Shown: in pieces, positions 3,651 through 32,019 of the stretch | Position numbering within the stretch: position 1 is the stretch's first letter | How the letters are laid out: the number at the start of each line of letters is the position of its first letter | NCBI RefSeq assembly: GCF_045037415.1 | Contig: NZ_CP173438.1 | Direction: 5' to 3' (one strand) | DNA length: 64,000 nt | Source of the DNA: Escherichia coli | GTDB lineage: Bacteria; Pseudomonadota; Gammaproteobacteria; Enterobacterales; Enterobacteriaceae | The notes under the pieces: generated by a model | Databases searched by the model: none | Told to the model about the DNA's origin: nothing | What the model saw: the letters and a program-made list of their open reading frames with translations, nothing else | Program-made: the position numbers and the translations under genes

Positions 3651-5933
3651 ATGTCCGAGCTTAATGAAAAGTTAGCCACAGCCTGGGAAGGTTTTACCAA
3701 AGGTGACTGGCAGAATGAAGTAAACGTCCGTGACTTCATTCAGAAAAACTACACTCCGTACGAGGGTGACGAGTCCTTCCTGGCTGGCGCTACTGAAGCG
3801 ACCACCACCCTGTGGGACAAAGTAATGGAAGGCGTTAAACTGGAAAACCGCACTCACGCGCCAGTTGACTTTGACACCGCTGTTGCTTCCACCATCACCT
3901 CTCACGACGCTGGTTACATCAACAAGCAGCTTGAGAAAATCGTTGGTCTGCAGACTGAAGCTCCGCTGAAACGTGCTCTTATCCCGTTCGGTGGTATCAA
4001 AATGATCGAAGGTTCCTGCAAAGCGTACAACCGCGAACTGGACCCGATGATCAAAAAAATCTTCACTGAATACCGTAAAACTCACAACCAGGGCGTGTTC
4101 GACGTTTACACTCCGGACATCCTGCGTTGCCGTAAATCCGGTGTTCTGACCGGTCTGCCAGATGCTTATGGCCGTGGTCGTATCATCGGTGACTACCGTC
4201 GCGTTGCACTGTACGGTATCGACTACCTGATGAAAGACAAACTTGCACAGTTCACCTCTCTGCAGGCTGATCTGGAAAACGGCGTAAACCTGGAACAGAC
4301 TATCCGTCTGCGCGAAGAAATCGCTGAACAGCACCGCGCTCTGGGTCAGATGAAAGAAATGGCTGCGAAATACGGCTACGACATCTCTGGTCCGGCTACT
4401 AACGCTCAGGAAGCTATCCAGTGGACTTACTTCGGCTACCTGGCTGCTGTTAAGTCTCAGAACGGTGCTGCAATGTCCTTCGGTCGTACCTCCACCTTCC
4501 TGGATGTGTACATCGAACGTGACCTGAAAGCTGGCAAGATCACCGAACAAGAAGCGCAGGAAATGGTTGACCACCTGGTCATGAAACTGCGTATGGTTCG
4601 CTTCCTGCGTACTCCGGAATACGATGAACTGTTCTCTGGCGACCCGATCTGGGCAACCGAATCTATCGGTGGTATGGGCCTCGACGGTCGTACCCTGGTT
4701 ACCAAAAACAGCTTCCGTTTCCTGAACACCCTGTACACCATGGGTCCGTCTCCGGAACCGAACATGACCATTCTGTGGTCTGAAAAACTGCCGCTGAACT
4801 TCAAGAAATTCGCCGCTAAAGTGTCCATCGACACCTCTTCTCTGCAGTATGAGAACGATGACCTGATGCGTCCGGACTTCAACAACGATGACTACGCTAT
4901 TGCTTGCTGCGTAAGCCCGATGATCGTTGGTAAACAAATGCAGTTCTTCGGTGCGCGTGCAAACCTGGCGAAAACCATGCTGTACGCAATCAACGGTGGC
5001 GTTGACGAAAAACTGAAAATGCAGGTTGGTCCGAAATCTGAGCCGATCAAAGGCGATGTCCTGAACTATGATGAAGTGATGGAGCGCATGGATCACTTCA
5101 TGGACTGGCTGGCTAAACAGTACATCACTGCACTGAACATCATCCACTACATGCACGACAAGTACAGCTACGAAGCCTCTCTGATGGCGCTGCACGACCG
5201 TGACGTTATCCGCACCATGGCGTGTGGTATCGCTGGTCTGTCCGTTGCTGCTGACTCCCTGTCTGCAATCAAATATGCGAAAGTTAAACCGATTCGTGAT
5301 GAAGACGGTCTGGCTATCGACTTCGAAATCGAAGGCGAATACCCGCAGTTTGGTAACAACGATCCGCGTGTAGATGACCTGGCTGTTGACCTGGTAGAAC
5401 GTTTCATGAAGAAAATTCAGAAACTGCACACCTACCGTGACGCTATCCCGACTCAGTCTGTTCTGACCATCACTTCTAACGTTGTGTATGGTAAGAAAAC
5501 TGGTAACACCCCAGACGGTCGTCGTGCTGGCGCGCCGTTCGGACCGGGTGCTAACCCGATGCACGGTCGTGACCAGAAAGGTGCTGTAGCGTCTCTGACT
5601 TCCGTTGCTAAACTGCCGTTTGCTTACGCTAAAGATGGTATCTCCTACACCTTCTCTATCGTTCCGAACGCACTGGGTAAAGACGACGAAGTTCGTAAGA
5701 CCAACCTGGCTGGTCTGATGGATGGTTACTTCCACCACGAAGCATCCATCGAAGGTGGTCAGCACCTGAACGTTAACGTGATGAACCGTGAAATGCTGCT
5801 CGACGCGATGGAAAACCCGGAAAAATATCCGCAGCTGACCATCCGTGTATCTGGCTACGCAGTACGTTTCAACTCGCTGACTAAAGAACAGCAGCAGGAC
5901 GTTATTACTCGTACCTTCACTCAATCTATGTAA
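3651..5933 (+). CDS. pflB: Pyruvate formate-lyase (formate C-acetyltransferase)
   Basis: 760-aa ORF; glycyl-radical region RVSGYAVRF near the C-terminus; RBS aagaaggtagg upstream. Confidence 0.95.
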
Positions 5934-6124: not shown

Positions 6125-6865
6125 ATGTCAGTTATTGGTCGCATTCACTCCTTTGAATCCTGTGGAACCGTAGACGGCCCGGGTATTCGCTTTATCACCT
6201 TTTTCCAGGGCTGCCTGATGCGCTGCCTGTATTGTCATAACCGCGACACCTGGGATACGCATGGCGGTAAAGAAGTTACCGTTGAAGATTTGATGAAGGA
6301 AGTGGTGACCTATCGCCACTTTATGAACGCTTCCGGCGGCGGCGTTACCGCATCCGGCGGTGAGGCAATCCTACAAGCTGAGTTTGTTCGTGACTGGTTC
6401 CGCGCCTGCAAAAAAGAAGGCATTCATACCTGTCTGGACACCAACGGTTTTGTTCGTCGTTACGATCCGGTGATTGATGAACTGCTGGAGGTAACCGACC
6501 TGGTAATGCTCGATCTCAAACAGATGAACGACGAGATCCACCAAAATCTGGTTGGAGTTTCCAACCACCGCACGCTGGAGTTCGCTAAATATCTGGCGAA
6601 CAAAAATGTGAAGGTGTGGATCCGCTATGTTGTTGTCCCAGGCTGGTCTGACGATGACGATTCAGCGCATCGCCTTGGTGAATTTACCCGTGATATGGGC
6701 AACGTTGAGAAAATCGAGCTCCTCCCCTACCACGAACTGGGCAAACACAAATGGGTGGCAATGGGTGAAGAATACAAACTCGATGGTGTTAAACCACCGA
6801 AGAAAGAGACCATGGAACGCGTGAAAGGCATTCTTGAGCAGTACGGTCATAAGGTCATGTTCTAA
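6125..6865 (+). CDS. pflA: Pyruvate formate-lyase activating enzyme (radical SAM)
   Basis: ORF 6098..6865; start at ATG 6125 ([23 protein letters not shown]...); CxxxCxxC motif CLYCHNRD. Confidence 0.9.
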
Positions 6866-6877
6866 TTTCCCCGTAAA

Positions 6878-6907
6878 GCGGCAACTTTATTGAGTTGCCG
6901 CTTTTTT
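6878..6907 (+). terminator. Intrinsic terminator of pflA
   Basis: gcggcaact-ttattg-agttgccgc hairpin followed by tttttt. Confidence 0.6.
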
Positions 6908-6911
6908 GTGC

Positions 6912-6952
6912 ACAGAAAAGCAGAGTGTGAAACAGTAAGTTCACACTCTGCT
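6912..6952 (-). terminator. Hairpin terminator of ycaD, facing the pflA terminator
   Basis: 13-bp inverted repeat agcagagtgtgaa / ttcacactctgct with a T run on the minus strand. Confidence 0.5.
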
Positions 6953-6961
6953 TGAATTCAT

Positions 6962-8110
6962 TTACACGTGAGCCACGGGTTTCGGCGTATGGCCGGCGTT
7001 GCGAAGCAGCATCAGCAAATAGATAAACGATACGCTGGCGATCATGATAAACAATAAATTATCGGAGAAATTCTGCATTAGCATAGCGGTAAATGACGGG
7101 CCAAGCAGGCTTCCCACGGTATAGCTCAACAGTAAGGCCTGGTTCATCGCCACCAGTTGATGATGTTCAACTTTCTCACAAGCCCAGGCCATCGCCACCG
7201 GATATAGCGTAAAGCCAGCGGCACCGAGGATGAATAACGCTGGGGCCATCGCCGCCTGGCTAAGCATCGCAATACTGCCGAGAATGACGACAAAGACCTG
7301 AACACGCAACACCAGCAGTCGACCAAACTTATCCGCCAGACGTCCAATCGGCCATTGTCCGAGGATACCCGCACTGACCAGTACCGCCATCCAGAAACCA
7401 ATGCTGGCATTGCTCACCCCTTTGTGATTGAGGTACAGCGGCATCAGGCCATATAGAGATCCCAGCACGATTCCTGAGATAATGCAGCCATTCACGCCAA
7501 GCCGCGCCTGACGGAGTTTTAGCATTGACGTAATTGACGTCGAATCATGGTTTTCAGTCTGCTGATTCAGGACACGCGTAAACAACAGCGGTAAGATTCC
7601 TGCCAACGTCAAACCTGTAACCCACGGCAATACACTCATCAACTCGGTTGAGACTTTGCTGACCAGTAACTGGCCTAAAAACGTTCCGACGTAATAAACC
7701 ATCATATACGCAGCAAGCAACCGCCCGCGGTTACGCGACGTCCCACTGCACATCAGCGCACTCTCAACAACCACCCAAATCATGGCACAGCCGATGCCAG
7801 CGACAAAACGCCACGCCAACCAACTCCAGAATCCAATCATCAGGCCAAGGCCGGCACAGCCAGCGGCAAAAATGAAGGAGGCCAGATAATAGCTGCGGTT
7901 AAAGCCAATGCGTTTAATGACATACCCTGTCAGCAATGTACCGACAAGGTTGCCGGTAAAATAGGATGAGCTGACAACGCCTACCTGCCATGTAGACATG
8001 TGTTCCTGGGCGAGCCAAAGCGGCACGAGTGTATTTAACACCGCGATCGCCAGAGTCAACAAAAGCAGGCCAGACAGCAAAAGCATGACAGGCCGGGTAT
8101 ACGTGGACAT
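6962..8110 (-). CDS. ycaD: MFS transporter YcaD
   Basis: 382-aa polytopic membrane protein [37 protein letters not shown]..., matching recalled YcaD. Confidence 0.85.
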
Positions 8111-13322: not shown

Positions 13323-14315
13323 CTAATCGATGGACAGTTTATGGACACTTTCAGCCAGCGGATTAAAGTTGATCGCGTCCAGTAAAAAGTCCGGCGAAAA
13401 ATGAGCGTACGTCATTGTTTGCTGAATCGTTGCGTGCCCCAGGATTCGTTGCAACGTAACAATATTTCCGCCATTCATCATAAAGTGTGTGGCAAATGTA
13501 TGACGCATGACATGCGTAGCCTGCCCCTTCGGCAAATCCGGTTTCACCTCCTGAAGAATCTCCCGGAACTTCAGATAATCAACCTGATACAATAACCCCG
13601 TTCGACGGGTTTTAATCAGAGGCACGACCGAATCCGCCACAGGAACCGAACGGGATTTTCCGTTTTTGGTGTTAAAGAACGTCACCCGGTTGCCAACGAT
13701 ATGCTCTCCACGTAGTTCCGATGCTTCACTCCATCGGGCACCAGTAGAAAGACACAGAATGGCAACACGACGCACATCACCCTCCAGTCGCTCAAGAAGC
13801 CGTTCAATCTCATCATCAGAAAGAAAGGCCATCTCTGTGTTCTGAACTTTCAGTTTTCGTATACCGCGTACAGGGTTCGCGTTGTGAAAGACCTCAGCTT
13901 CAATCAGCACCGTGAACATGGTAGACAGTACGCATAAGTCACGATTAATACTGGACGGCATTAATCCGGCCTGTAATTTCTCTGACCGATATTCAAGCAT
14001 AAATTTTCGCGTCATCTGACTGGCGCGAGGATCTCCCATTTCACGAACAACCTTCCCTAGCCTAACCCTGTAGCTATCCCCGTAAGCCTGATTACGCCCA
14101 TCAAGCATCCACCACGCATCAAGCAGCTCTGATAATCGCCGCTGATCAGCTGGCTTAGCCTGCCATGGCTTGTCATGAAAGTTCTGTAACACATACTTCT
14201 CAAACTCCTGAGCCTTTGATTTCAGGGCAAAGATTTTTCGAATCCGCTTTCCTTCCGCCCCCTGCGGTCTGACATCGACCTGATAACGTCCGTCTTTGAG
14301 TTGCTTAATCGACAT
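13323..14315 (-). CDS. int: P2-type tyrosine integrase
   Basis: ORF 13323..14330 trimmed to MSIKQLKDGRYQVDVRP...; closely parallels the recalled P2 Int (MAIKKLDDGRYEVDIRP...), with ILCLSTGARW, HVMRHTFATHF and LGHATIQQTMTYAHF catalytic motifs. Confidence 0.9.
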   Translation of the reverse strand: MSIKQLKDGRYQVDVRPQGAEGKRIRKIFALKSKAQEFEKYVLQNFHDKPWQAKPADQRRLSELLDAWWMLDGRNQAYGDSYRVRLGKVVREMGDPRASQMTRKFMLEYRSEKLQAGLMPSSINRDLCVLSTMFTVLIEAEVFHNANPVRGIRKLKVQNTEMAFLSDDEIERLLERLEGDVRRVAILCLSTGARWSEASELRGEHIVGNRVTFFNTKNGKSRSVPVADSVVPLIKTRRTGLLYQVDYLKFREILQEVKPDLPKGQATHVMRHTFATHFMMNGGNIVTLQRILGHATIQQTMTYAHFSPDFLLDAINFNPLAESVHKLSID

Positions 14316-16475: not shown

Positions 16476-16754
16476 ATGACCAAAGAGCATGCACAAGGTG
16501 TATTTATCCGTTTTATTGATTTTCGCGGTGAACTGTTATTACGCGCATCAGCCATTGACGGAGTTGTTCCATCCGAAAAAAATGCAGCTACTTACGTTTA
16601 TCTGAACGGCACGCGCCTGACCGTAGAACTTCCGTACCAGACTGTACACGAAATCATTAGCGAAGCGGAAAAAGCACGTAAGACTAATGGCGATGAACCC
16701 TATATCGAAATTATTTGTATGGATTCAGAAGCAGAAATTCAGAAAGCAGATTAA
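16476..16754 (+). CDS. Hypothetical phage early protein
   Basis: ATG 16476 (MTKEHAQGVFIRFIDFRGELLLRASAIDGV...), 92 aa. Confidence 0.45.
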   Translation: MTKEHAQGVFIRFIDFRGELLLRASAIDGVVPSEKNAATYVYLNGTRLTVELPYQTVHEIISEAEKARKTNGDEPYIEIICMDSEAEIQKAD

Positions 16755-18408: not shown

Positions 18409-18730
18409 GAAACCAGAGCATGCACACACAAAAAAACCGCTTGCCATGCCGCAATCAGTCAGGTTACATTTCCGCTGCACCTCATAAAACGGGTGCCGGG
18501 TTTCGCAGCCTGCTGACTACACAAGCGCACAACCGCGCCAGCGGTTTTTTTGTGCGTACTGTATTGCCACGTTTTTTTCGCGTCAGAATTATGGCGGGGC
18601 GTACGGGGCCGACTTCGGTCGGGCCGGGTTCTTGTGTAGCCGGTACTGCGAACCTCGTACGTCTCGCCACCCACAGTTTCGCAGCTCTGGATGGTGAGTT
18701 TTCACAACTTACTACACAAGGGGCCACACC

Positions 18731-19405: not shown

Positions 19406-22228
19406 ATGACGGCAGAGTACCTCAGGGACTGGCAACAACCGCGCCACGCAGTGGGGCGTGAAGGAACGGGGATCCCCGCTCCTGAATCCGCGCTTTCCTC
19501 CTGGCTGGATGCCTACCGGGCAGAGAACGAGCGCCGCCAGGAAATGGCTGATGCGGCGTTCTCAGCCACGCCGCTGGGCAACCTGATTAATAAAAGCCTG
19601 GACGCACAGGAAAAACAGGACAAAACCATCACACTGGCAGGAGACGCCAGAAAACAGGCACGTGGCGCGGTGGATGAAGCCATGGCCTCGCTGCGCCTGC
19701 TGCCGTCCTATCTGCGCGATCCGCTTATTCGCCACCTCTCCTTCCTGCGCAAAAAACAGGAAGCCGATCGCCGGAAAGGCAAAAAGAGCTGGCAGGCGGA
19801 ACGCTATGCACGCGGAACCCTGCGCAAAATATTCGAACGTCTGGATAGCACTGACGGACGCTGGCTGACACCGGGTTATCGCTCCCTTGCCGGACGCGAA
19901 CGCCTGGACGATTTGCTTTACCTGCCGCAGCTCAACAAACACCAGATACAGACGCTGGCCACCATGACGGCGGCGATGTTCAGCAGCACCTTCGAAAAAC
20001 TCTGCGATGGCTTTGGCGCGACCGATGGCGAGCTGACCATGGATGTAACCCTGAAGGCGTATCAGATGCTGGCCCGCATGGCGTTACACCTGCACGCCAT
20101 GCCTCCACATTATGACGCACTGACAACAGACAAAGACCGGAGGAACGAACCGGACACGGAGCTGCTGCCGGGCGCAATCCTTCGCCTGACCTGTGCGGAA
20201 TGGTGGAAACGCAAACTGTGGCTGTTACGTTGCGAGTGGAGAGAAGAACAACTCCGCGCCGCCTGTCTGGTTTCCAGAAAAACATCACCCTATCTGAGCC
20301 AGGACGCGTTAAGCGAGTTTCGCGCACAGCGCGAGAAAACACGCGATTTCCTGAAAAGTTTCATGCTGGAAAATGAAGACGGGTTCACGATTGATCTCGA
20401 GACAGTGTATTACGCGGGAGTAAGTAACCCGGTTCACCGTAAGGCAGAAATGATGGCCACCATGAAGGGACTGGAACTTCTGGCCGAAGCCCGTGGCGAC
20501 AAAGCGGTGTTTCTGACTGTCACCTGCCCGTCAAAATACCACGCCACAACGGAGAACGGTCATCCGAATCCCAAATGGAACGGGGCCACAATGCGCGACT
20601 CCAGCGATTACCTGGTTAACACGTTTTTTGCGGCGGTCCGCAAAAAACTGAACCGCGACGGCCTGCGCTGGTATGGCATCCGCACGGTGGAGCCTCATCA
20701 TGACGGCACCGTGCACTGGCATATGATGGTCTTTGCACATCCGGAAGAAATCGACACCATTGTGTCCCATACCCGCGATATTGCCATTCAGGAAGACCGC
20801 CACGAGCTGGGCAATGATATTACTCCGCGCTTTAAGGTGGAGTATGTCGACGGCTCAAAAGGCACGCCAACCAGCTACATCGCCACCTACATCGGAAAGA
20901 ACCTGGACAGCCGCGCCGTGGATGGCATCGACCCGAAAACGGGCAAGCCACGCGTGGACCACGAAACCGGAAAATCAATGGCCGAGAGCGTGGAGCGCGC
21001 CATCGGCTGGGCGCGCCTTCACCGGGTCCGTCAGTTCCAGTTCTTTGGCATCCCCTCCCGTCAGGTGTGGCGTGAACTGCGCCGCCTTGCCAGCCAGATG
21101 GCACGCAATCCGGAAGGCCCGCAACGGCTGAAAGATGATGCAATGGATGCGGTACTCGCTGCCGCCGATGCCGGGTGTTTTGCCACCTACATTGAAAAAC
21201 AGGGTGGCGTGCTTGTTCCACGCAAGGACTACCTGATTCGCACCGCCTACGACCTCGCAGATGAGCTGAACGATTACGGCGAACAGAGCGTACAGATTTA
21301 CGGGATCTGGTCACCACTCATCGGGGAATCCTCCCGTGTGTGCACGCATCCGGATAACTGGAAGCTGGTAAGACGTAAACCGGAAGCGGAAGACAGCGCC
21401 CGCGAAAATGGTTTTGACCTTCAGGGCGGCCCTGCCGCCCCTTGGACTCGTGGCAATAACTGTCCCCGTGTACAGGAAACGGACAACAACGGGACAGAAC
21501 AGCCGGAAGAACGGCCAGCACCGTGGCCGCAGCTCCCTGACGGCGTTGAAGTGAACGAATGGATGCGCTCACTGAAACGACACGAACGCCGGGCGCTGAT
21601 GCGTTCGCTTCGTGACAAACAGGCAAAAAACAGCAGCGATGAAATGCAGAGCTGGACACAGAGCCGCAAACAGCAGCGGCCTTTGCCTGATAACCACGAA
21701 TTACTCGCTAAAGAATGGCGGGAGTCTGCTGAATCTCTCGGCCTGCATATCGGTGAACAACAGATGCAGCACCTGTTACGGGGCGGCAGTCTGTACGTTG
21801 ACGGCAGCATCATTGCACCGCAGGGATTTGAAATTGTACGCAAACCGGATACCCGCCCGGACAGCCGAATCACGCAGCTCTGGCAGCGCCTGAGCCGTAA
21901 TCATGGCGTAAGCAGCACGGAGATCCGCCATAACCCGGTCGCCAGCTATCTGGCACAGCTGGGGGCATCAGACCCTGAAGCCGCCGCACGCCTGGCATCC
22001 ACACTTCAGCAGGGCCAGAACACCATGAAAACACCCGTTACCGTGCTTTCTGACATGCTGCGCGCCATCCGCGACGCAGAGCACGCACAGAGAATCAGTG
22101 AAACCACTGAACGCGCCAGCCGCAAAGCAGACCTGCTGCGGGGTGGCCTGACCAGTGGAAACAAAAAACAGACAGAAACGGGACTTACGAATCCCGTAAA
22201 TGAGCAAAAAACGCGCAGCGATATATGA
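19406..22228 (+). CDS. P2 gpA-type rolling-circle replication initiation endonuclease
   Basis: 940 aa; HxH metal motif in TVEPHHDGTVHWHMMVFAHPEE, typical of gpA/gene II Rep proteins; longer than P2 A as I recall it (about 760 aa). Confidence 0.8.
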   Translation: MTAEYLRDWQQPRHAVGREGTGIPAPESALSSWLDAYRAENERRQEMADAAFSATPLGNLINKSLDAQEKQDKTITLAGDARKQARGAVDEAMASLRLLPSYLRDPLIRHLSFLRKKQEADRRKGKKSWQAERYARGTLRKIFERLDSTDGRWLTPGYRSLAGRERLDDLLYLPQLNKHQIQTLATMTAAMFSSTFEKLCDGFGATDGELTMDVTLKAYQMLARMALHLHAMPPHYDALTTDKDRRNEPDTELLPGAILRLTCAEWWKRKLWLLRCEWREEQLRAACLVSRKTSPYLSQDALSEFRAQREKTRDFLKSFMLENEDGFTIDLETVYYAGVSNPVHRKAEMMATMKGLELLAEARGDKAVFLTVTCPSKYHATTENGHPNPKWNGATMRDSSDYLVNTFFAAVRKKLNRDGLRWYGIRTVEPHHDGTVHWHMMVFAHPEEIDTIVSHTRDIAIQEDRHELGNDITPRFKVEYVDGSKGTPTSYIATYIGKNLDSRAVDGIDPKTGKPRVDHETGKSMAESVERAIGWARLHRVRQFQFFGIPSRQVWRELRRLASQMARNPEGPQRLKDDAMDAVLAAADAGCFATYIEKQGGVLVPRKDYLIRTAYDLADELNDYGEQSVQIYGIWSPLIGESSRVCTHPDNWKLVRRKPEAEDSARENGFDLQGGPAAPWTRGNNCPRVQETDNNGTEQPEERPAPWPQLPDGVEVNEWMRSLKRHERRALMRSLRDKQAKNSSDEMQSWTQSRKQQRPLPDNHELLAKEWRESAESLGLHIGEQQMQHLLRGGSLYVDGSIIAPQGFEIVRKPDTRPDSRITQLWQRLSRNHGVSSTEIRHNPVASYLAQLGASDPEAAARLASTLQQGQNTMKTPVTVLSDMLRAIRDAEHAQRISETTERASRKADLLRGGLTSGNKKQTETGLTNPVNEQKTRSDI

Positions 22229-22304: not shown

Positions 22305-23264
22305 ATGAAAATTTGTATCGACGACGGCTCCACCAACATCAAGCTGGCATGGACTGAGAATGGCGAACGCCGCAACGCCATCAGCCCGAACAGCTTCAAG
22401 TCGGAATGGTCTGCGCCGTTCGGTGGCATGCAGCCCGCGAACTACATGCTTGATGGCGTGCGCTATGGTTTTGATCCGGTTAGCGATCGCTTTGTCCAGA
22501 CGACCGACACGCAATACCAGTACAGCGATGTGAATGTAATCGCCATTCATCACGCGCTGGTCAAATCAGGCATCACGCCACAGGAGGTGGATGTGGTTGT
22601 CACCCTGCCACTGAGCGAGTATTTCGACACAAACGCACAGCCGGACATGGCCAACATCAACCGCAAAAAAGCGAACGTTATGCGCCCGGTGGAATACCAG
22701 AACGGCGAAGCATTCACTATCCGTAACGTGCGGGTTATGCCTGAATCCATTCCGGCTGGCTTTAAAGCACTGGCTGACATGAGTCCGTTTGAATCCCTGC
22801 TGATTGTGGATTTAGGCGGAACCACGCTGGATGTGGCAAAGGTTCAAGGGCAACTGGCAGGTATCAGCCAGGTGTTTTGCGATCCACACGTAGGCGTTTC
22901 CCTGATGGCCGATGCCGTACTGTCGGTGATGGCCACTAACGGTATGCGCACCAGTCACCACATCGCCAATACCATTATCGAACATCGCCATGATGAAGCC
23001 TGGCTGCGCCAGCACATCCACAATGACGCGCATTACGCCAGCCTGATGGCGGTTATTCGTGAAAAGGAAGAAACACTGAAACAACGCGTGATCCGCTCGC
23101 TGGCGGTTTTTTCGGGTTACGGGCGGGTGATGGTTGTCGGTGGAGGGGCGGAGATTGTGGCACCCGCTATCCGCGAAGTCTGCGGAGTTAATGCGACTTT
23201 CATCGCGGACGGGGTGCCACAGTTTGCTCTGGTTAATGGGCTGTACGCAATGGACAAGGAGTAA
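22305..23264 (+). CDS. ParM/StbA-like actin-family partition ATPase
   Basis: MKICIDDGSTNIKLAW...ISPNSFKSEW...YSDVNVIAIHHAL...VVGGGAEI parallels recalled plasmid R1 ParM (MLVFIDDGSTNIKLQW...ISPNSFKREW...YSDVNVVAVHHAL...). Confidence 0.8.
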   Translation: MKICIDDGSTNIKLAWTENGERRNAISPNSFKSEWSAPFGGMQPANYMLDGVRYGFDPVSDRFVQTTDTQYQYSDVNVIAIHHALVKSGITPQEVDVVVTLPLSEYFDTNAQPDMANINRKKANVMRPVEYQNGEAFTIRNVRVMPESIPAGFKALADMSPFESLLIVDLGGTTLDVAKVQGQLAGISQVFCDPHVGVSLMADAVLSVMATNGMRTSHHIANTIIEHRHDEAWLRQHIHNDAHYASLMAVIREKEETLKQRVIRSLAVFSGYGRVMVVGGGAEIVAPAIREVCGVNATFIADGVPQFALVNGLYAMDKE

Positions 23265-23268
23265 ACCA

Positions 23269-23583
23269 ATGACGACACCAACCAGACGGATAAGTTTCTA
23301 TCTGAAGCCCGCCGCCGTCAAGAGTGAACAGGAGGCGTGCAATTACCTCGATAGCCTGCCAGCCTCCGAACGCAGCCGCGCGCAACGCGCGGCCTTTCTG
23401 GCTGGGCTAGCGCTCATAAAGCGCAACCCAGCATTTGCCTACTGGATGGCCGAATGGCCAGAGGACAACCTCCCCTTCAATACCGTTAGCATCAAGGAAA
23501 CATACCAGGATAATCAGCCTAGCGGAGTTGAATGCAATTTTTATAAAATAAAAAAGAATATTCAGACCTTATTCCCAGAATAA
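23269..23583 (+). CDS. ParR-like centromere-binding protein
   Basis: MTTPTRRISFYLKPAAV...LDSLPASERSRAQRAAFLAGLAL parallels recalled R1 ParR (RTIAFKLNPDV...LDSIPQGERSRLNRAALTAGLAL); directly follows the parM-like gene. Confidence 0.65.
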   Translation: MTTPTRRISFYLKPAAVKSEQEACNYLDSLPASERSRAQRAAFLAGLALIKRNPAFAYWMAEWPEDNLPFNTVSIKETYQDNQPSGVECNFYKIKKNIQTLFPE

Positions 23584-23666: not shown

Positions 23667-24509
23667 TCATGATGAAATTGCCGAAGTTTTTTTATCGTGC
23701 TGAAGTACCGCAAATGCCATTAAAACCTCAAGAGAATAGCGGCGATAATACTTAACAAAACCATAATAAAATACTCGGGATGCAGCAATACAAAACAAGA
23801 GAAGAAAACAAAAAGGTAACAGTCTGATATTTATATCTATTAAAAAGGATAGAAGGAGCAGGAACATAAGCAACCAGACTGAAGCGAGAAAAACAAATGT
23901 AATGTTTCTACAAAAACCATACAAAGCAACATAGTTTTGCATTTTCACCTGATGATTTTTAGAATGTTCATACACATAATGATAAGCAAGGCGAAAAAGA
24001 TCGCCCCTCAAGCCCTTACGTCGATATAGCGTAGATACAGAAAAAACATTTATATAACCATCTCGTATTTGCGGCCAAAAGACTTTAATAAGTATAGAAT
24101 GCAGTGTGGTTTTATGATGTTCTGCTTTATCAAAAGCTGATACAGGAAATAAAAAAACTCCACGAATAAAATTAACTATACTGAACTTAGTATTATGTCG
24201 TTTTATTTTCAGGGAGCTTCTTTTAGAAAACAGATAAATTGAAGGATACCCAAGTTTACTGTTCATGTATTTTTCAATTAAACAGGATGATAGAATAGAT
24301 ATGAAGTGACCTGAAATATATGATAGAACGATTAATACCACATATATAAATACACTTATTATTTCTTTATATTTCAGGATATGGTTAAGAATACCTTCTA
24401 TATAAACAGGGTTAATTTCAATAGAAAACAAAAAAAGGATAAACAGGAATAACCCACCTGGAATTAGATAGCCCAAAAAGTCATAAAATGAAAACGGATT
24501 CTGTGTCAC
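23667..24509 (-). CDS. Polytopic membrane protein (280 aa, at least 4 TM), unknown function; second gene of the AT-rich cargo operon
   Basis: GTG start with RBS aggggg; two N-terminal and two C-terminal hydrophobic helices around a basic ~130-aa loop; about 32 percent GC by eye. Confidence 0.6.
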   Translation of the reverse strand: MTQNPFSFYDFLGYLIPGGLFLFILFLFSIEINPVYIEGILNHILKYKEIISVFIYVVLIVLSYISGHFISILSSCLIEKYMNSKLGYPSIYLFSKRSSLKIKRHNTKFSIVNFIRGVFLFPVSAFDKAEHHKTTLHSILIKVFWPQIRDGYINVFSVSTLYRRKGLRGDLFRLAYHYVYEHSKNHQVKMQNYVALYGFCRNITFVFLASVWLLMFLLLLSFLIDINIRLLPFCFLLLFCIAASRVFYYGFVKYYRRYSLEVLMAFAVLQHDKKTSAISS

Positions 24510-24548: not shown

Positions 24549-25046
24549 TTATTTGTTTTTCCGTAAAGGATTAGCTTTCCATCTTCTTACTAACCATTCG
24601 AATTCTTGATATGTAGTATCCGAATTAATGCTTTCTCTGATTGCTTTAATTAATGGCTCGGCAATATCATATGTCTCTACAACTGTTGTGTAAGATGTTC
24701 TTTTTATCATTTTTTCATCATAAATACCTTCACGAATACTTACAGCAACTCGCTCGTAAAAATTTAAAATATATTGAAATTTTCGACGCTCGGCCATTTC
24801 TTCATCTGTTATTATGCAACCATCACAAGGAAAAACATAAGAACGAAATGATTTGCCTGAACGATGCACTTGTTTCAGGGTATGCAATGACTCTATATAT
24901 TGCATATCTTGCCGACTCTCAAAAAGAAAGTTGGCCGTTTGAGTTTTTTTTGCGGTACGCACATTGTAGATAATGGTTCCAATGGCAACCAAAACGCCAA
25001 GCAGAACAATAGCATTGCTGATGATTTGTAGTGTTATTGGGTTCAT
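24549..25046 (-). CDS. N-terminally membrane-anchored protein (165 aa), unknown function; first gene of the AT-rich cargo operon
   Basis: MNPITLQIISNAIVLLGVLVAIGTIIYNV (one TM) followed by a ~140-aa charged soluble domain; AT-rich. Confidence 0.6.
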   Translation of the reverse strand: MNPITLQIISNAIVLLGVLVAIGTIIYNVRTAKKTQTANFLFESRQDMQYIESLHTLKQVHRSGKSFRSYVFPCDGCIITDEEMAERRKFQYILNFYERVAVSIREGIYDEKMIKRTSYTTVVETYDIAEPLIKAIRESINSDTTYQEFEWLVRRWKANPLRKNK

Positions 25047-25057
25047 CCTATTTCATC

Positions 25058-25088
25058 CATAAAAAAGGCGGGGAGCAAATCCCCGCCT
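25058..25088 (-). terminator. Intrinsic terminator / candidate attenuator directly upstream of the 165-aa gene
   Basis: Minus strand reads ggcgggg-atttgct-ccccgcc then tttttt; the T run ends about 12 nt before the ATG at 25046. Confidence 0.55.
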
Positions 25089-25107
25089 CATTAGAGGTCA
25101 ACGTAGC

Positions 25108-25143
25108 TTAGAAACCATCAAATTCATCATACATTTTTTTCAT
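25108..25143 (-). CDS. Candidate leader peptide (11 aa, MKKMYDEFDGF)
   Basis: Strong SD gaggggg 5-6 nt upstream of the ATG; stop codon 18 nt before the terminator stem. Confidence 0.35.
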   Translation of the reverse strand: MKKMYDEFDGF

Positions 25144-25195
25144 ATCAACCCCCTCATAGAAATCATAACCACGTTTTGTGGTTTTTGTGACGTAT

Positions 25196-25224
25196 AAACT
25201 ACATCAAAGGCAAGCCACGGTCAA
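25196..25224 (-). promoter_or_regulatory. Candidate sigma-70 promoter for the leader and membrane-protein operon
   Basis: Minus strand: ttgacc, 17-bp spacer, tagttt; followed by the palindrome ccacaaaacgtgg before the leader RBS. Confidence 0.3.
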
Positions 25225-25769
25225 ATATATAGGCATGCTTACCTGCACAAAAGTGCACAAATTTGCACAATTTTTTTGAACGACTTTTTACCCTTCCGGC
25301 CCGCATGGCGGCTGGATCCGTCAAGGATCCGTGCGTGCACAAAAAAACGCGCTTTTTCTGCGCGCAGGTGACGGGGGAACAGCCCGCGTTTCAGGGGGTA
25401 AATAGCATTCCCTGAACGATGTCGCAGAGACACAACAGAATGGCCATATTTCTCACGCTGAGCATGAAAAAGGCGTGAGGGCTTTTGATTTGATGGGGTG
25501 AAAGGTAAGGCCGTCAAAATCGCACTGAGGCAGCGAGAACATGCAGTCAACGCGGTGGAATTGCGTAAGAGTCTGACCGTCGATGGTGGCGATAAACTGG
25601 AAGGCGTCGTGAAATTATCTGATTGATACAGGAGCTGGAGAGCCGGGGCATAAATTTTTTATGCCCCGGCGAAGCAGCAGACAAGCGAAGCGCGTCAGCG
25701 ATACGGCACCTTGCCGACCATACTTCATAAGTGCAAAATACGAGCAAAGAAATCAATGGAGGCTGTCTT

Positions 25770-26294
25770 ATGGTCATTAATTACAAGCAGTTAAGAGAAA
25801 AACGGGAGCAGGTAAAGGAGAGCTTTCGCCGCAATGAAGATCTGACCCCGCTTGTACGCCTTGCCCAGGGCATTGTTGATGCTTATGAAATCTCGCTGGA
25901 GCTGCCATCACAGACCTGGACAGATAGCGACGGTAATCGCCAGCATTACGTTTCATGCGGACTGGAAGCAGCCGAAGGATTTCGCAGAATGCCTTTATCC
26001 CAGATCCCTGCCGCTACCCCCAAAGCACGGGGCAGCAATGATGAGCGAAAACTGACTTTTAGTATTGAAACGGTGGTTGACGACACACCTGGCGAAGTCG
26101 CGTTCGTGCACACTCCTGTTTCGATCGCAATGTATAACGATGAAATACAGGTTCGCGTTAATAATAATATCGTGCCACTTAAAGAAGGTAATTCACCCTA
26201 CACCACCGTTTGTGAAGCCATTCAATATTACGTTCTCTCTGAAATTGATAATCTCAAGCCTGACGGCACCCAGAAAATGGTTCAACTCTGGTAA
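25770..26294 (+). CDS. Hypothetical protein (174 aa), convergent on the portal gene
   Basis: ATG 25770 with RBS ggagg; MVINYKQLREKREQVKESFRRNEDLTPLVRLAQGIVDAYE...; no motif recognised. Confidence 0.45.
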   Translation: MVINYKQLREKREQVKESFRRNEDLTPLVRLAQGIVDAYEISLELPSQTWTDSDGNRQHYVSCGLEAAEGFRRMPLSQIPAATPKARGSNDERKLTFSIETVVDDTPGEVAFVHTPVSIAMYNDEIQVRVNNNIVPLKEGNSPYTTVCEAIQYYVLSEIDNLKPDGTQKMVQLW

Positions 26295-26308
26295 AAAGGA
26301 CAGCCCCA

Positions 26309-27355
26309 TCACGGGGCTGTTTTTTCATCAAGAAGAGCATAAGAGTTAAAACGGATCACCTCTTCGCCAAGCCAGTCATTGATGTGCTTCATAGCCTCCA
26401 TAACGGGCATCAGCTCGTTAATTGCGTAAACCCGCGCTGCCTTCTCCACATCGCCAAACGCACTTTTTTCGCCCGGCATCGCCCCCATCAGTTGCGGCGG
26501 AACGCGGTGCGCAGCCAGCACATCATCACGGGATGCCGCCTTAACATTCATGAATTCATCTTTTGCGGTGATCTGCTGGAACGGCAAAATTTGCACCCCC
26601 TCTTTGCCCCCGTTGGGCGCATGAATGAGCACGTTTTTAAACGCACCACCACCACGTGCCCCCTGTAGCGTTTCTTTCAGGGAGTCCATGCTTTCGCGGT
26701 TTACCTGCGCTGCACCGATGTAGATGATGCACCCGGCGTGGGATCCGTTGTCGTAGTACAGTTTTCTGAACATGTCCGCCGAATGAGAAAGGCTGGCCGA
26801 GAGTAATGCGCCAAGATATTCCGGCATGCCGTAGATTTCCTGGTTAATATCCGGATTCATCAGGTGGCACACTTTGCCAGGACGAAACTGAAACGCGTCC
26901 TTGCCATCCTGCACATACCACCATGATTCAAGATCGCTTCCGCGTCGCATGTATTTCGCCAGGGCGTGCCGTAATTTAAGCGGTTCGCCGAGCATATTGC
27001 TTCGAAGCTCAAGGAATGCGTTACCGAACACAAACCAGTCCAGCGCCAGCGCCGAGAAATCCTGCCGGGAAAGCAGCGGGTGCGGGATGTAGCAACCGAG
27101 TAATACATTGCGCTTAAAGTAAAGCGCAGACTGATGCCAGGACGTTTGCCGGGCTGCTCTTGCCAGACCGTACCAGTCCACCGGGGTTTCATACCACCGC
27201 CCGTTATCAGCACAGTACATATTGTCCAGCAGGTCATGCCCGGTCAGGCGATAAGGACCATCAAATGTGAATGCACTGAGCGATGATTCTTTCCTGAGCG
27301 CATCAGCGAGATCAATGCGTGAACTCATGCGCACTTTTTTATTTTTTCTGCTCAT
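26309..27355 (-). CDS. Portal protein (P2 gpQ-like)
   Basis: 348 aa (P2 Q is about 344); ATGA-coupled downstream of the large terminase, as in the P2 QP operon. Confidence 0.85.
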   Translation of the reverse strand: MSRKNKKVRMSSRIDLADALRKESSLSAFTFDGPYRLTGHDLLDNMYCADNGRWYETPVDWYGLARAARQTSWHQSALYFKRNVLLGCYIPHPLLSRQDFSALALDWFVFGNAFLELRSNMLGEPLKLRHALAKYMRRGSDLESWWYVQDGKDAFQFRPGKVCHLMNPDINQEIYGMPEYLGALLSASLSHSADMFRKLYYDNGSHAGCIIYIGAAQVNRESMDSLKETLQGARGGGAFKNVLIHAPNGGKEGVQILPFQQITAKDEFMNVKAASRDDVLAAHRVPPQLMGAMPGEKSAFGDVEKAARVYAINELMPVMEAMKHINDWLGEEVIRFNSYALLDEKTAP

Positions 27356-29106
27356 CAGAACTCCATAACCATGAAACGCTCGTTTTCTCCTTCGCCGCCA
27401 ATTGGTTCGTTAATGACAGCAAGCATGGTTGCCCACGCAAGGTCGCCGTGGCTGATCCCCCTCGCGCGGTCCGTTTCGTAAGTGATAAAGCCGCCCGGTG
27501 TTTTCACCTTACGCACGGCGTTAAAGGCCGCGACCAGCTCGCGTTCGGCGCGATCGTATTCCCACCGCCCGGCACGCATTATTTGCAGCATTTTCAGTAC
27601 CAGCGACCGTTTTGATGACAGCGTGAAGGTGTACGGAATAGCAGCAGGGAAAAACCGCTTCACTATCTGATAAACAGCCTCCCCGTTCCCGCCCGTCACA
27701 TCAATGCCGATGTGTTCCACGTTGTAGCGACACGTGAACTCTTCAATGACTCTGGCCTGTTCTTCAAACTCCAGCCCCTGAACGCGTCGCGTCTCCACCG
27801 TTCGAAAACGGCCGCCAGGAACAGCCGGAGGAACCACCACGGACACAGCGCCGCTGTCGCCGTTGCCACTACTGCCGTTTGCGTCATACCCAATCCATAC
27901 CGGACGATTCCCCATCGGGCGGGGAGCAAAAGGTTTCCAGTCTTTCCAGTCGTCGTATCCGTCAACACCGCAGCCAATCAGGATATTCAGGTTAAATGCC
28001 GATTCCCCTTCGCGGACAAACTCACACATATAGAGATTGAGGAACTCGTCTTCGGTGTTTTCATCACGAATTTCGTCGATATCGGTGTGTTTCCAGCCGT
28101 GATTAACCACATCTTCCAGCGTGACAATTTGCCGCCACGTCCGGTCAGGGCAGATAAGCCCATTATGCAGCGTTTTCCAGTCCACAGAAAAACGCTGGCG
28201 TTTATGCGAGGCCTTTTTCTCGTTCCAGCGGTCGCCGTTCCAGTAGGCGTATGCCTCGTGCGTTTCGGTGGATGGCGTGGAGAAGTAGGTGCGCCGCAGT
28301 CCGCTGAGGGTTGCCATAGCGCCAGCCACCTTGCGCAGTTCAGCAAAGCGACTGACCCAGAAAAATTCATCAAAATAAAAATTGCCCGTATAGGACTGTG
28401 CCGACGCAGCAGAAGTGCCGAGAAAATGCAGCTCTGCGCCGTTGGAGAGGATGATTTTATCGCCCCCTTTCAGCTCCACATCAACTTCAGCCGCGGCCTT
28501 CTGAATAATGCTTTTAAACTGGAACGCCTGACGACGCGACGCAGACAAAAAAATCTGGTTACGCTGGTAAGGTTGCGCCACATCGTCACGCAGCGCCATC
28601 AGCAGTGCTTCCTGTGCAAAATACCAGGTCGCCCCAATCTGTCGGGATTTCAGGATCATCCTGTTACGTATCCCGGCTTCCCTGCAAAGGGTCAGGGAGT
28701 CAAACCAGCCCCGCTGATGCCACTCCAGCCTGCTGATGATTTTTTCCCGCAGTGCGGCAATCTGTTCCGGCGTGAAATGATTTTTGAGTTTTTTCGCCCG
28801 GCCTTTCTTTCCTGCGGCCATCACATCCGGCTGGCCATCATGCAGCTTTTTAAGCTGCCGGGTCAGCAGGTCTATTTCCTTAAAGTCACCGCCTGTTTTA
28901 TTCTGTTTTTCAGTAAGCTGGATGAGGCGCGCATCGATGGACTGCGTGACACGCTGCACGGGTGGCGTTTCATCCCACTGGTCACGTTTTTTCCACGCAT
29001 AAATCGTGTTCGGGTTTATTCCCATCAGACGTGATATTTCTGCGGGCGGATAACCCTGCCAGTAAAGTTGCCGCGCACGCTGGCGCACAAAAGCGTCCTG
29101 AATCAT
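27355..29106 (-). CDS. Terminase large (ATPase) subunit (P2 gpP-like)
   Basis: 583 aa; Walker-A-like KSRQIGATWY; divergent from the O-N-M-L operon. Confidence 0.85.
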   Translation of the reverse strand: MIQDAFVRQRARQLYWQGYPPAEISRLMGINPNTIYAWKKRDQWDETPPVQRVTQSIDARLIQLTEKQNKTGGDFKEIDLLTRQLKKLHDGQPDVMAAGKKGRAKKLKNHFTPEQIAALREKIISRLEWHQRGWFDSLTLCREAGIRNRMILKSRQIGATWYFAQEALLMALRDDVAQPYQRNQIFLSASRRQAFQFKSIIQKAAAEVDVELKGGDKIILSNGAELHFLGTSAASAQSYTGNFYFDEFFWVSRFAELRKVAGAMATLSGLRRTYFSTPSTETHEAYAYWNGDRWNEKKASHKRQRFSVDWKTLHNGLICPDRTWRQIVTLEDVVNHGWKHTDIDEIRDENTEDEFLNLYMCEFVREGESAFNLNILIGCGVDGYDDWKDWKPFAPRPMGNRPVWIGYDANGSSGNGDSGAVSVVVPPAVPGGRFRTVETRRVQGLEFEEQARVIEEFTCRYNVEHIGIDVTGGNGEAVYQIVKRFFPAAIPYTFTLSSKRSLVLKMLQIMRAGRWEYDRAERELVAAFNAVRKVKTPGGFITYETDRARGISHGDLAWATMLAVINEPIGGEGENERFMVMEF

Positions 29107-31218: not shown

Positions 31219-32019
31219 ATGATTACTCCTGCACAACAACACTGGCAGAACGTGATGGCACAGCGCGCAGGCCGGGCGAATGAAGGTGTGGACCACGCCG
31301 CGTGTACCGCGCATGAAGAGGTGCTGTATCGTCTGCGTCTGGCACAGGCCAGGCTAAAGGCCATACAGGCCAGAAGCGCGAAAGCCGCCATCAAAAAAGA
31401 GTTGTTGCCGGACTTTTCCGGCTGGATTGAGGGAACGCTGGAGGCTGACGGCGGGCAACAGGACGAAGTAATTGCCACGCTGATGGTGTGGGCGATTGAC
31501 TGCGGCGATCTTCCGCTGGCGCTGCGTATTGGTGCATATGTGGTCCGTCACAACCTCATCATGCCGGATAACTTTGGCCGTACTGCTGCCACGGTACTGA
31601 CCGAAGAAATCTGCAACCCGGTACTGACGCAGGCTGGGACGGATGCCGACGCGGATTTATCCGCCTTTATCGAACCACTGGACACACTTTGGGAAATTAT
31701 CGCCAACCAGGACATGCCGGACGAAGTGCGCGCCAAATTATGCAAGGCGTGTGCCTTTGCCCGTCGTGGCCTGACCGATGCAGACAACATGGCCTCATCA
31801 CTGAAGCTGCTGCGCGAAGCGATGCACCTGAACCCGAACGCAGGTGTGAAACGCGAGATTGCAACCCTTTCCCGCGCCCTGAAAAAAGCCGATTCCGCAG
31901 CCGAACCAGAAGACGCCAGCGCACAGCAGGCGCAGGACGAAAGCAGCAAAAGTAAAAAGACAACGCGGAAGCCTGCAACACGAAAAACCACCGCGACGCA
32001 GAAGGCAAAGCGCGGTTAA
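31219..32019 (+). CDS. Terminase small / endonuclease subunit (P2 gpM-like)
   Basis: 266 aa with a basic Lys/Thr-rich C-terminal tail; position after N. Confidence 0.8.
   Translation: MITPAQQHWQNVMAQRAGRANEGVDHAACTAHEEVLYRLRLAQARLKAIQARSAKAAIKKELLPDFSGWIEGTLEADGGQQDEVIATLMVWAIDCGDLPLALRIGAYVVRHNLIMPDNFGRTAATVLTEEICNPVLTQAGTDADADLSAFIEPLDTLWEIIANQDMPDEVRAKLCKACAFARRGLTDADNMASSLKLLREAMHLNPNAGVKREIATLSRALKKADSAAEPEDASAQQAQDESSKSKKTTRKPATRKTTATQKAKRG

Follow-up and report, generated by a model that had tools for sequence, protein, structure and literature searches.

Where does a P2-type prophage keep its packaging site when the cohesive ends of P2 and 186 cannot be recognized in its sequence? 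The question is raised by a 64,000-nt stretch of Escherichia coli DNA (contig NZ_CP173438.1, referred to below as the window), which carries a P88-like prophage (genus Xuanwuvirus, family Peduoviridae; P2 family) whose sequence in this region is shared at 100% identity by phages vB_EcoM-569R5 and 705R2 and many chromosomes of E. coli ST131. In P2, 186 and P4 the cohesive-end site (cos) gives rise to 19-nt 5′ cohesive ends, GGCGAGGCGGGGAAAGCAC or GGCGTGGCGGGGAAAGCAT, and is sited between the cargo region following gpA and the 3′ end of the portal gene Q. At the equivalent place of the window an earlier note had observed a 174-aa open reading frame (ORF), supposed to stand where cos is expected, together with a noncoding stretch containing a perfect hairpin, and had left the packaging site unlocated. 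Here, we describe a diverged site with the architecture of P2, 186 and P4, which very probably occupies positions ~25243-25409 inside that same noncoding interval, so that the 174-aa gene does not take the place of cos but lies beyond it. The locus as a whole is likely to be composed of a P2-type cos with altered recognition letters, a spacer retaining an old transcript-end hairpin and then a moron, i.e., an inserted cargo gene.

Architecture of the probable cos site and its variants

The assignment is primarily based on geometry. The region was compared with the circularised ends of P2, 186 and P4, with all distances counted from where the 19-nt cohesive end begins. If the GC-rich core GGTGACGGGGGAACAGCCC, situated between the cargo genes downstream of gpA and portal gene Q, starts at 25367, the four TGCAC boxes of the window fall at −123, −113, −103 and −31, while the TGCAT boxes of P2, 186 and P4 are found at −123(4), −111, −101 and −29, the proximal counterpart at −29 reading TGCATTAAAA in all three. 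The proximal box of the window accordingly lies ~72 bp beyond the triple array, and the core begins 31 bp after it. Comparison with P2-family cos regions, which the earlier note had suggested, thus returned a box geometry near-identical to the reference one, and positions −123/−113/−103/−31 recur in phages of Salmonella, Trabulsiella and Edwardsiella, in a satellite and in a divergent E. coli phage. The triple array is unique in the window, with 0.03 occurrences expected by chance. A degenerate P2-like core pattern matches the window solely at 25367-25385, and only at 25367 do core, proximal box and distal array come together. Amid diverging sequence the blocks that stay conserved are the three TGCAC boxes, the TGCAC with its A-tract (25336-25347) and GCGCAGGTGACGGGGGAACAGC. 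As the earlier note had reported for the cohesive ends of P2 and 186, neither is present in the window, here at a tolerance of up to three mismatches; core and box scans found no better candidate elsewhere in the window, nor did a clear cos match turn up at any other place of the prophage, an outcome for which the note had allowed.

The site has several features in common with cos of P2, 186 and P4. It stands between the post-gpA cargo region and the portal 3′ end, its GC-rich core falls in the same length class, its three clustered 5-bp boxes and the single proximal box keep near-identical distances from the core, and it occurs in helper phages as well as in satellites. It differs from them in the letters of the boxes (TGCAC instead of TGCAT), in the core, which agrees with the P2 end GGCGAGGCGGGGAAAGCAC at 13 of its 19 positions (the Trabulsiella version at 15), and in the distance from core to portal stop, amounting to 168-177 bp in P2, 186 and P4 (168 bp in P2), 314 bp in cassette-free P88-type phages and 923 bp in the window. 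Both terminase subunits have likewise diverged from their P2 counterparts (only 37-45% identity), because of which a diverged cos site is to be expected. The distal and proximal boxes change together across lineages, as TGCAT, TGCAC or TGAAC, which is the behavior expected if one protein reads all of them. TGAAC is encountered in an Edwardsiella prophage (L142, ~4585-4740), where it occupies two of the three distal boxes and the proximal one, the remaining distal box being TGCAA; the core there is GGTGACGGGGGACACGCCC, and the geometry of the site is unchanged. TGAAC may be regarded as a third natural specificity variant beside TGCAT and TGCAC. In lambda, cos consists of the nicking site cosN and of cosB with terminase-binding R boxes, and generates a 12-nt overhang. 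The present site resembles it in having a nicking site with repeated boxes on one side, to which binding of the small subunit is presumed, and differs in its unrelated sequence and in that box binding has been demonstrated for lambda. By this scheme the small terminase subunit (~31219-32016) together with the large one (27355-29106) would bind the boxes and introduce staggered nicks into the core, producing 19-nt 5′ cohesive ends; virion DNA would then begin, at its left end, with the core, and the first gene encountered inward would be the 174-aa gene.

Positions 25367-25385 are the somewhat favored choice for the exact cohesive ends. Three deposited genomes carry deletions at this place, of 7 nt in Chuche (L149), 5 nt in P88_4B11 (LR595891, L001) and 1 nt in 503458 (L150), all confined to the core or its edge (25367-25390) in a 190-nt alignment that is otherwise collinear. 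They may be either assembly artefacts at physical ends or real variation of the overhang; their confinement to the core fits assembly trouble at physical DNA ends and is a hint in this direction, not a proof. Several observations weigh on the other side. Taken alone, the 13/19 agreement of the core with the P2 end carries no significance, since 21 sites of the window reach at least 13/19 and the best of them, at 16659, attains 15/19. No deposited phage record starting at the core was found, and the linear record LR595891 begins at the equivalent of 25289; we treat this start point as arbitrary. The literature search found neither determined physical ends for a P88-type phage nor a paper containing the motif string, and no paper testing the binding of terminase to TGCAY boxes, which is thus presumed. 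Finally, the invariance of the core over the loci collected from IMG/VR (see below) is partly so by construction, the scan pattern having selected them.

Two other interpretations of the region were weighed. Cohesive ends might lie elsewhere in the conserved block, namely at CGCATGGCGGCTGGATCCG (25302-25320), the first ten bases of which resemble the 186 end, with CGCGTGGCGG of the relatives agreeing with it at nine of the first ten positions as read from the sequence, or at the start of linear P88_4B11 (25289), the two ends of LR595891 joining exactly at the equivalent of 25288/25289. We consider this improbable: the full 19-mer at 25302 agrees with the 186 end at only 11 positions of 19, conservation in the satellite and divergent phages is lower there than anywhere else in the region, the box geometry fits P2, 186 and P4 only with a core starting at ~25367, and the indels of deposited phage genomes cluster at 25367-25390 rather than at the 25302 stretch. 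Still less credible is that the TGCAC repeats serve as a partition centromere of the adjacent ParM/StbB module or as operators of a regulator, for although short boxes repeated once per helical turn are a usual feature of centromeres and operators, and genes for ParM and a Plasmid_stab_B protein lie 1.7-3 kb upstream, the same boxes stand at the same distances from the core in phages and satellites lacking ParM (L016, L014, L142, L011 and L012), by which the centromere variant was rejected, and P2, 186 and P4 have TGCAT boxes at matching positions with no partition genes annotated or detected near cos. The P88-type cos is best taken as a new sequence member of the known P2/186/P4 type, for which our literature searches found no describing paper.

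A GC-rich hairpin (acgcgc-tttttct-gcgcgt, 25347-25365) adjoins the core directly on the left. It was scored as terminator-like on the minus strand by the terminator scan and is not conserved in the satellite; in P2 a similar hairpin (ccgccc...gggcgg) stands at the corresponding position.

Distribution of the site among phages and satellites

The block 25244-25698 is retained at 93-95% identity in P88, 520873, 500465-2, Shae_phiSM and other phages, and in P88-type relatives it runs straight into the portal stop. The cos block was detected in 1205 of 5426 complete E. coli genomes (about a fifth), and in 120 loci from IMG/VR the core precedes the portal stop by ~195-345 nt unless a cargo gene stands between them. 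The extent of the site is suggested by more distant carriers. Satellite copies in three loci (L011, L022 and L065) match positions 25243-25409 of the window at 81% identity, while a divergent P2-like phage (L012) matches 25244-25388 only. The satellites, exemplified by L011 (NZ_CP051609.1, 3784461-3798627), encode an integrase, an Icd-like protein, a Toprim primase and an ogr/delta protein and have neither portal nor terminase genes. When the three whole elements were compared with the window by BLAST, matches beyond cos were limited to a 36-nt piece of isrK and, in L022 only, an integrase gene. P4 has only the core cos signal in common with P2 (Rousset et al., 2022; PMC9122126), so that satellites sharing 25243-25409 and little else with the prophage parallel the sharing of cos between P4 and P2.

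Precise location of cos allows P88-type (Xuanwuvirus) prophages, common in ST131 and present in roughly one in five complete E. coli genomes, to be oriented and delimited correctly, and the 167-bp segment offers a signature for finding satellites mobilised by P88-type phages. The series TGCAT, TGCAC and TGAAC at fixed distances from the core, in turn, constitutes a natural set of variants for studying recognition by P2-family terminases. All these findings belong to ordinary phage biology and do not overturn its current understanding.

Some features of the satellite family deserve mention on their own. Its members encode a P4-type integrase, an 889-aa Toprim primase, a second integrase, an ogr/delta zinc-finger protein and a MazEF pair, as well as a 449-aa protein with the P2-family major capsid domain (Pfam E-value 1e-71); a capsid gene is not among the annotated genes of P4 (NC_001609). 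Satellites with the TGCAC-type cos are P4-like, and their possession of a major capsid gene of the P2 family is unusual. In L022 the second integrase gene (6863-7788) is 88% identical at the DNA level to positions 13353-14278 of the window, which correspond to the integrase gene of the prophage according to a matching E. coli annotation, and the similarity suggests an exchange between helper and satellite.

The conserved spacer and the inserted cargo gene

The intergenic gap extends over 25047-25769 and is wider than first noted. Its left part (25047-25243) belongs with the neighboring cargo module, and to the right of cos lies a spacer (25410-25698) that is specific for the lineage; neither the satellites nor the divergent phages that have the same cos contain it. 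The only ORF annotated by deposited relatives in the noncoding stretch is a 42-aa one (25498-25626). Its candidacy as a gene was rejected, since variable sites are spread evenly over the codon positions (17/21/20) and 3 of 55 distinct copies contain internal stops; the earlier description of the stretch in front of the 174-aa ORF as noncoding is thereby upheld. A search of 24900-26500 against Rfam produced only a sub-threshold match to SorX in the flagged region.

The hairpin reported previously at 25643-25669 (arms ccggggcat and atgccccgg at 25643-25651 and 25661-25669) is present, and its stem is in fact longer, comprising 13 perfect pairs closed by a 3-nt loop. Its RNA folds with −31.6 kcal/mol on the plus strand (z = −7.3) and −29.3 kcal/mol on the minus strand (z = −6.8), and none of 200 shuffled sequences folds as well. 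It is preserved in relatives, being located 20-50 nt past the portal stop in cassette-free P88-type phages, and it persists downstream of another cargo gene in L032 and L039. Terminators tQ and tW are annotated at the equivalent place in P2 and 186. We suppose that the hairpin is probably the ancestral 3′-end structure of the P-Q transcript and the positional equivalent of P2 tQ, now separated from Q by 640 bp in the window. What speaks against this is the absence of a U-tract on either strand and the fact that the terminator scan did not list the hairpin; with the stem but no T-run, it is not a canonical intrinsic terminator. The missing U-tract, together with the very high stability of the hairpin and its retention throughout P88-type phages, including those with a cargo gene upstream of it, might instead suggest a role as a functional packaging element (for instance, cosQ-like) or as the end of a small RNA. 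Such a role appears unlikely, because satellites use the same cos with no hairpin, for which reason its inclusion in the packaging site must also be dropped, divergent phages with the same cos have unrelated sequence at its place, the lineage is widespread in spite of the 640 bp separating the hairpin from Q here, and no Rfam family matches it.

Next to the spacer, the 174-aa gene is almost certainly cargo, as the earlier note had ventured: it is confined to a cassette that is either present or absent in otherwise collinear phages. Homology to P88 ends after GCGCGTCAG (25690-25698), which still holds the old portal stop codon on the minus strand, and resumes at ~26334, the ~635-bp cassette standing in place of 21 nt of P88 sequence. 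P88, 520873, Shae_phiSM and others do not have it, whereas 15 of the 120 IMG/VR loci with this cos and 396 of the 5426 complete E. coli genomes (7%) do, always whole and always beside the portal gene. Because the cassette replaced P88 sequence, the C-terminus of the portal protein is DEKTAP here and DTQPTS in P88, the last six codons having been rewritten. These codons lie within and beside a stem-loop (26300-26320) contributed by the cassette, which has T-runs on both strands and is therefore classed as a bidirectional terminator, the scan having listed its minus strand. A possible weak sigma-70 promoter, TTGCCG-17-CAAAAT, precedes the gene and has TTGTCT-17-CAAAAT as its counterpart at the same place of a Salmonella orthologue; the promoter consensus scan did not report it, and the candidate is to be regarded as weak. 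The cassette would thus have been inserted later, between the hairpin and Q, bringing with it this possible promoter, a Shine-Dalgarno site, the 174-aa gene and the bidirectional terminator. Morons were described in lambdoid phages as autonomous promoter-gene-terminator insertions between conserved phage genes. The cassette is alike in being a discrete insertion with no counterpart in collinear relatives, in having its own terminator and a plausible promoter, and in encoding a protein unrelated to those of neighboring genes. It is unlike them in that the candidate promoter is weak and the insertion rewrote the last six codons of an adjacent essential gene.

The region between gpA and gpQ near cos is a cargo hotspot of P2-like phages, harboring old and tin in P2 (Rousset et al., 2022; PMC9122126), and the exact gene arrangement of the window is contained in Table S5 of the same work for this hotspot, the protein being called "hypothetical" there. 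The 174-aa gene, the DUF4760 gene and the gene for a 280-aa protein all lie inside the hotspot. What sets the first apart is its position beyond cos, toward Q, in a small sub-site where the sampled loci had only genes of the phrog_5091 family, and the literature search found no report of defence activity for it. The gene belongs to a catalogued family in a known hotspot; the findings as a whole are useful for annotation and would hardly surprise a specialist.

As stated in the earlier note, the ORF has a good ribosome-binding site (GGAGG at 25758-25762, 7 nt before ATG) and ends 14 nt from the portal stop codon (26309-26311). It is a real gene under purifying selection, judging from a dN/dS of 0.17 against an 85%-identical copy and from full-length homologues down to 46% identity. 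The homology search that the note had recommended for its product assigned it to the family phrog_5091 (E-value 1.4e-67, residues 1-168), and all 31 aligned relatives match this family as well. An exhaustive profile search yielded 87 cluster representatives, nearly all of them single-domain proteins of 155-175 aa. No match was found in Pfam, NCBIfam or PADLOC (PADLOC-DB 2.0), and a literature search for WP_000236495 returned nothing; phrog_5091 itself has no assigned function, Pfam entry or solved structure. The AF2 model (pLDDT 77.8) depicts two N-terminal helices and one C-terminal helix packed on an antiparallel sheet, in agreement with a soluble, mildly acidic (pI 5.0) alpha+beta protein, and all similarities retrieved by structure comparison were below significance. 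A 167-aa paralogue (pairwise E-value 2e-9; hhalign probability 97.7%) is found in this cos-Q interval in other P88-type phages and an Edwardsiella phage, and in one P88-type locus (L139, 5001-6175) 167-aa and 175-aa paralogues stand in tandem between cos and the portal gene. The Trabulsiella member, by contrast, adjoins gpA, and two distant ones are situated between antiterminator Q and a holin gene in a lambdoid prophage and inside the tail (baseplate) module of a myovirus, respectively, so the family is not tied to cos. Separately, the core of L139 carries a substitution, GGTGCCGGGGGAACAGCCC.

A role of the 174-aa protein in packaging was rejected, since most phages with near-identical portal genes do not have the gene and distant members reside in unrelated slots. 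Our best guess is a protein-binding accessory factor acting in phage-host or phage-phage conflict, exclusion or anti-defence, the remaining weight going to other roles in lysogenic conversion. Two variants of this guess, equally tentative, were compared. The protein might be an exclusion or defence factor against other phages, expressed from the prophage like old and tin of P2. The gene is patchily distributed, has the organization of a moron, with a terminator and perhaps a promoter of its own, and is sited in the cos-proximal gpA-gpQ hotspot, more than one-third of the tested systems of which defended against phage; however, a single small soluble protein with neither an enzymatic nor a membrane domain is unusual as a defence system, no PADLOC model matches it, and it is absent from the table of systems evaluated by the same authors (Rousset et al., 2022; PMC9122126). 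With no better odds, it may serve in anti-defence (counter-immunity), binding and blocking a host or satellite factor, against which it may be said that structural similarities are all below significance and no known anti-defence family matches. If conflict is indeed its business, phrog_5091 would represent uncharacterised phage conflict proteins (anti-defence, exclusion or anti-satellite), which P2-family phages keep preferentially in the cos-Q slot at the extreme left of virion DNA. The joint proposition that TGCAC-type cos defines a packaging-specificity group apart from P2, 186 and P4, with satellites of its own, and that phrog_5091 is at the same time such an uncharacterised conflict class is speculative, and we advance it with corresponding reserve. 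In any case a widespread and well-defined cargo gene in an anti-phage locus makes a reasonable candidate for a functional screen.

Neighboring genes and minor observations

Coordinates of the elements discussed above and of the adjacent genes are collected in Table 1.

Table 1. Features of the cos-portal region of the P88-like prophage and of its surroundings (positions in the window)
Feature	Position	Strand	Remarks
Replication endonuclease gpA	19406-22228	+	
ParM	22305-23264	+	
Plasmid_stab_B protein	to 23583	+	
280-aa membrane protein	23667-24509	-	
DUF4760 protein	24549-25046	-	
Noncoding interval	25047-25769		
cos region of P88-type phage (probable extent)	25243-25409	+	Segment common to phage and satellites
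Three TGCAC boxes (starts 25244/25254/25264, 10 bp apart)	25244-25268	+	Presumed cosB-like terminase recognition
Proximal TGCAC box (25336-25340), then A-tract	25336-25347	+	
GC-rich core GGTGACGGGGGAACAGCCC	25367-25385	+	Putative 19-nt cohesive end, cosN equivalent, ±~2 nt
Spacer conserved in P88-type phages	25410-25698		93-95% identity (P88, 520873, Shae_phiSM, others)
Hairpin, 13 perfect pairs (25642-25654 with 25658-25670), 3-nt loop	25642-25670		Both strands folded
Inserted cargo cassette (moron), ~635 bp	25699-26333	+	Junctions defined against P88
Possible weak sigma-70 promoter TTGCCG-17-CAAAAT	25711-25739	+	Candidate
174-aa gene (WP_000236495.1)	25770-26294	+	phrog_5091 member
Bidirectional intrinsic terminator from cassette	26300-26325 (stem-loop 26300-26320)	both	Stem acagcccc/ggggctgt
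Portal gene, P2 Q homologue	26309-27355	-	Pfam Phage_portal; 47% identity to P2 Q
Terminase large subunit, P2 P homologue	27355-29106	-	45% identity to P2 gpP
Terminase small subunit, gpM homologue	~31219-32016		37% identity to P2 gpM

Upstream of the gap, the integrated prophage encodes on the plus strand (22305-23583) an actin-like segregation protein of ParM/StbA type and a Plasmid_stab_B protein. About one-quarter of P2-like phages encode such a segregation system and may persist as plasmids (Rousset et al., 2022; PMC9122126). The 280-aa multi-pass membrane protein encoded on the minus strand belongs to phrog_12528 and shows a weak PADLOC match (E-value 1e-5) to Csx27, a membrane protein associated with type VI-B CRISPR; its gene adjoins that for the DUF4760 protein, and the two may form a cargo module. 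Upstream of the DUF4760 gene, on the same minus strand, is an 11-codon micro-ORF (MKKMYDEFDGF*, 25110-25145), preceded by a promoter-like site (25191-25162) and separated from the DUF4760 start by a terminator-like hairpin (25089-25065). The micro-ORF is restricted, among related loci, to those that have the DUF4760 gene, and its DEFDGF tail does not vary although synonymous substitutions occur; it may represent a leader peptide or attenuator, or else a small partner peptide. In the early region of the prophage, the Hfq-binding RNA isrK (RF01394, 65 bits, 18477-18551) is adjoined on the plus strand by a C4 antisense RNA (RF01695, 83 bits, 18587-18674).

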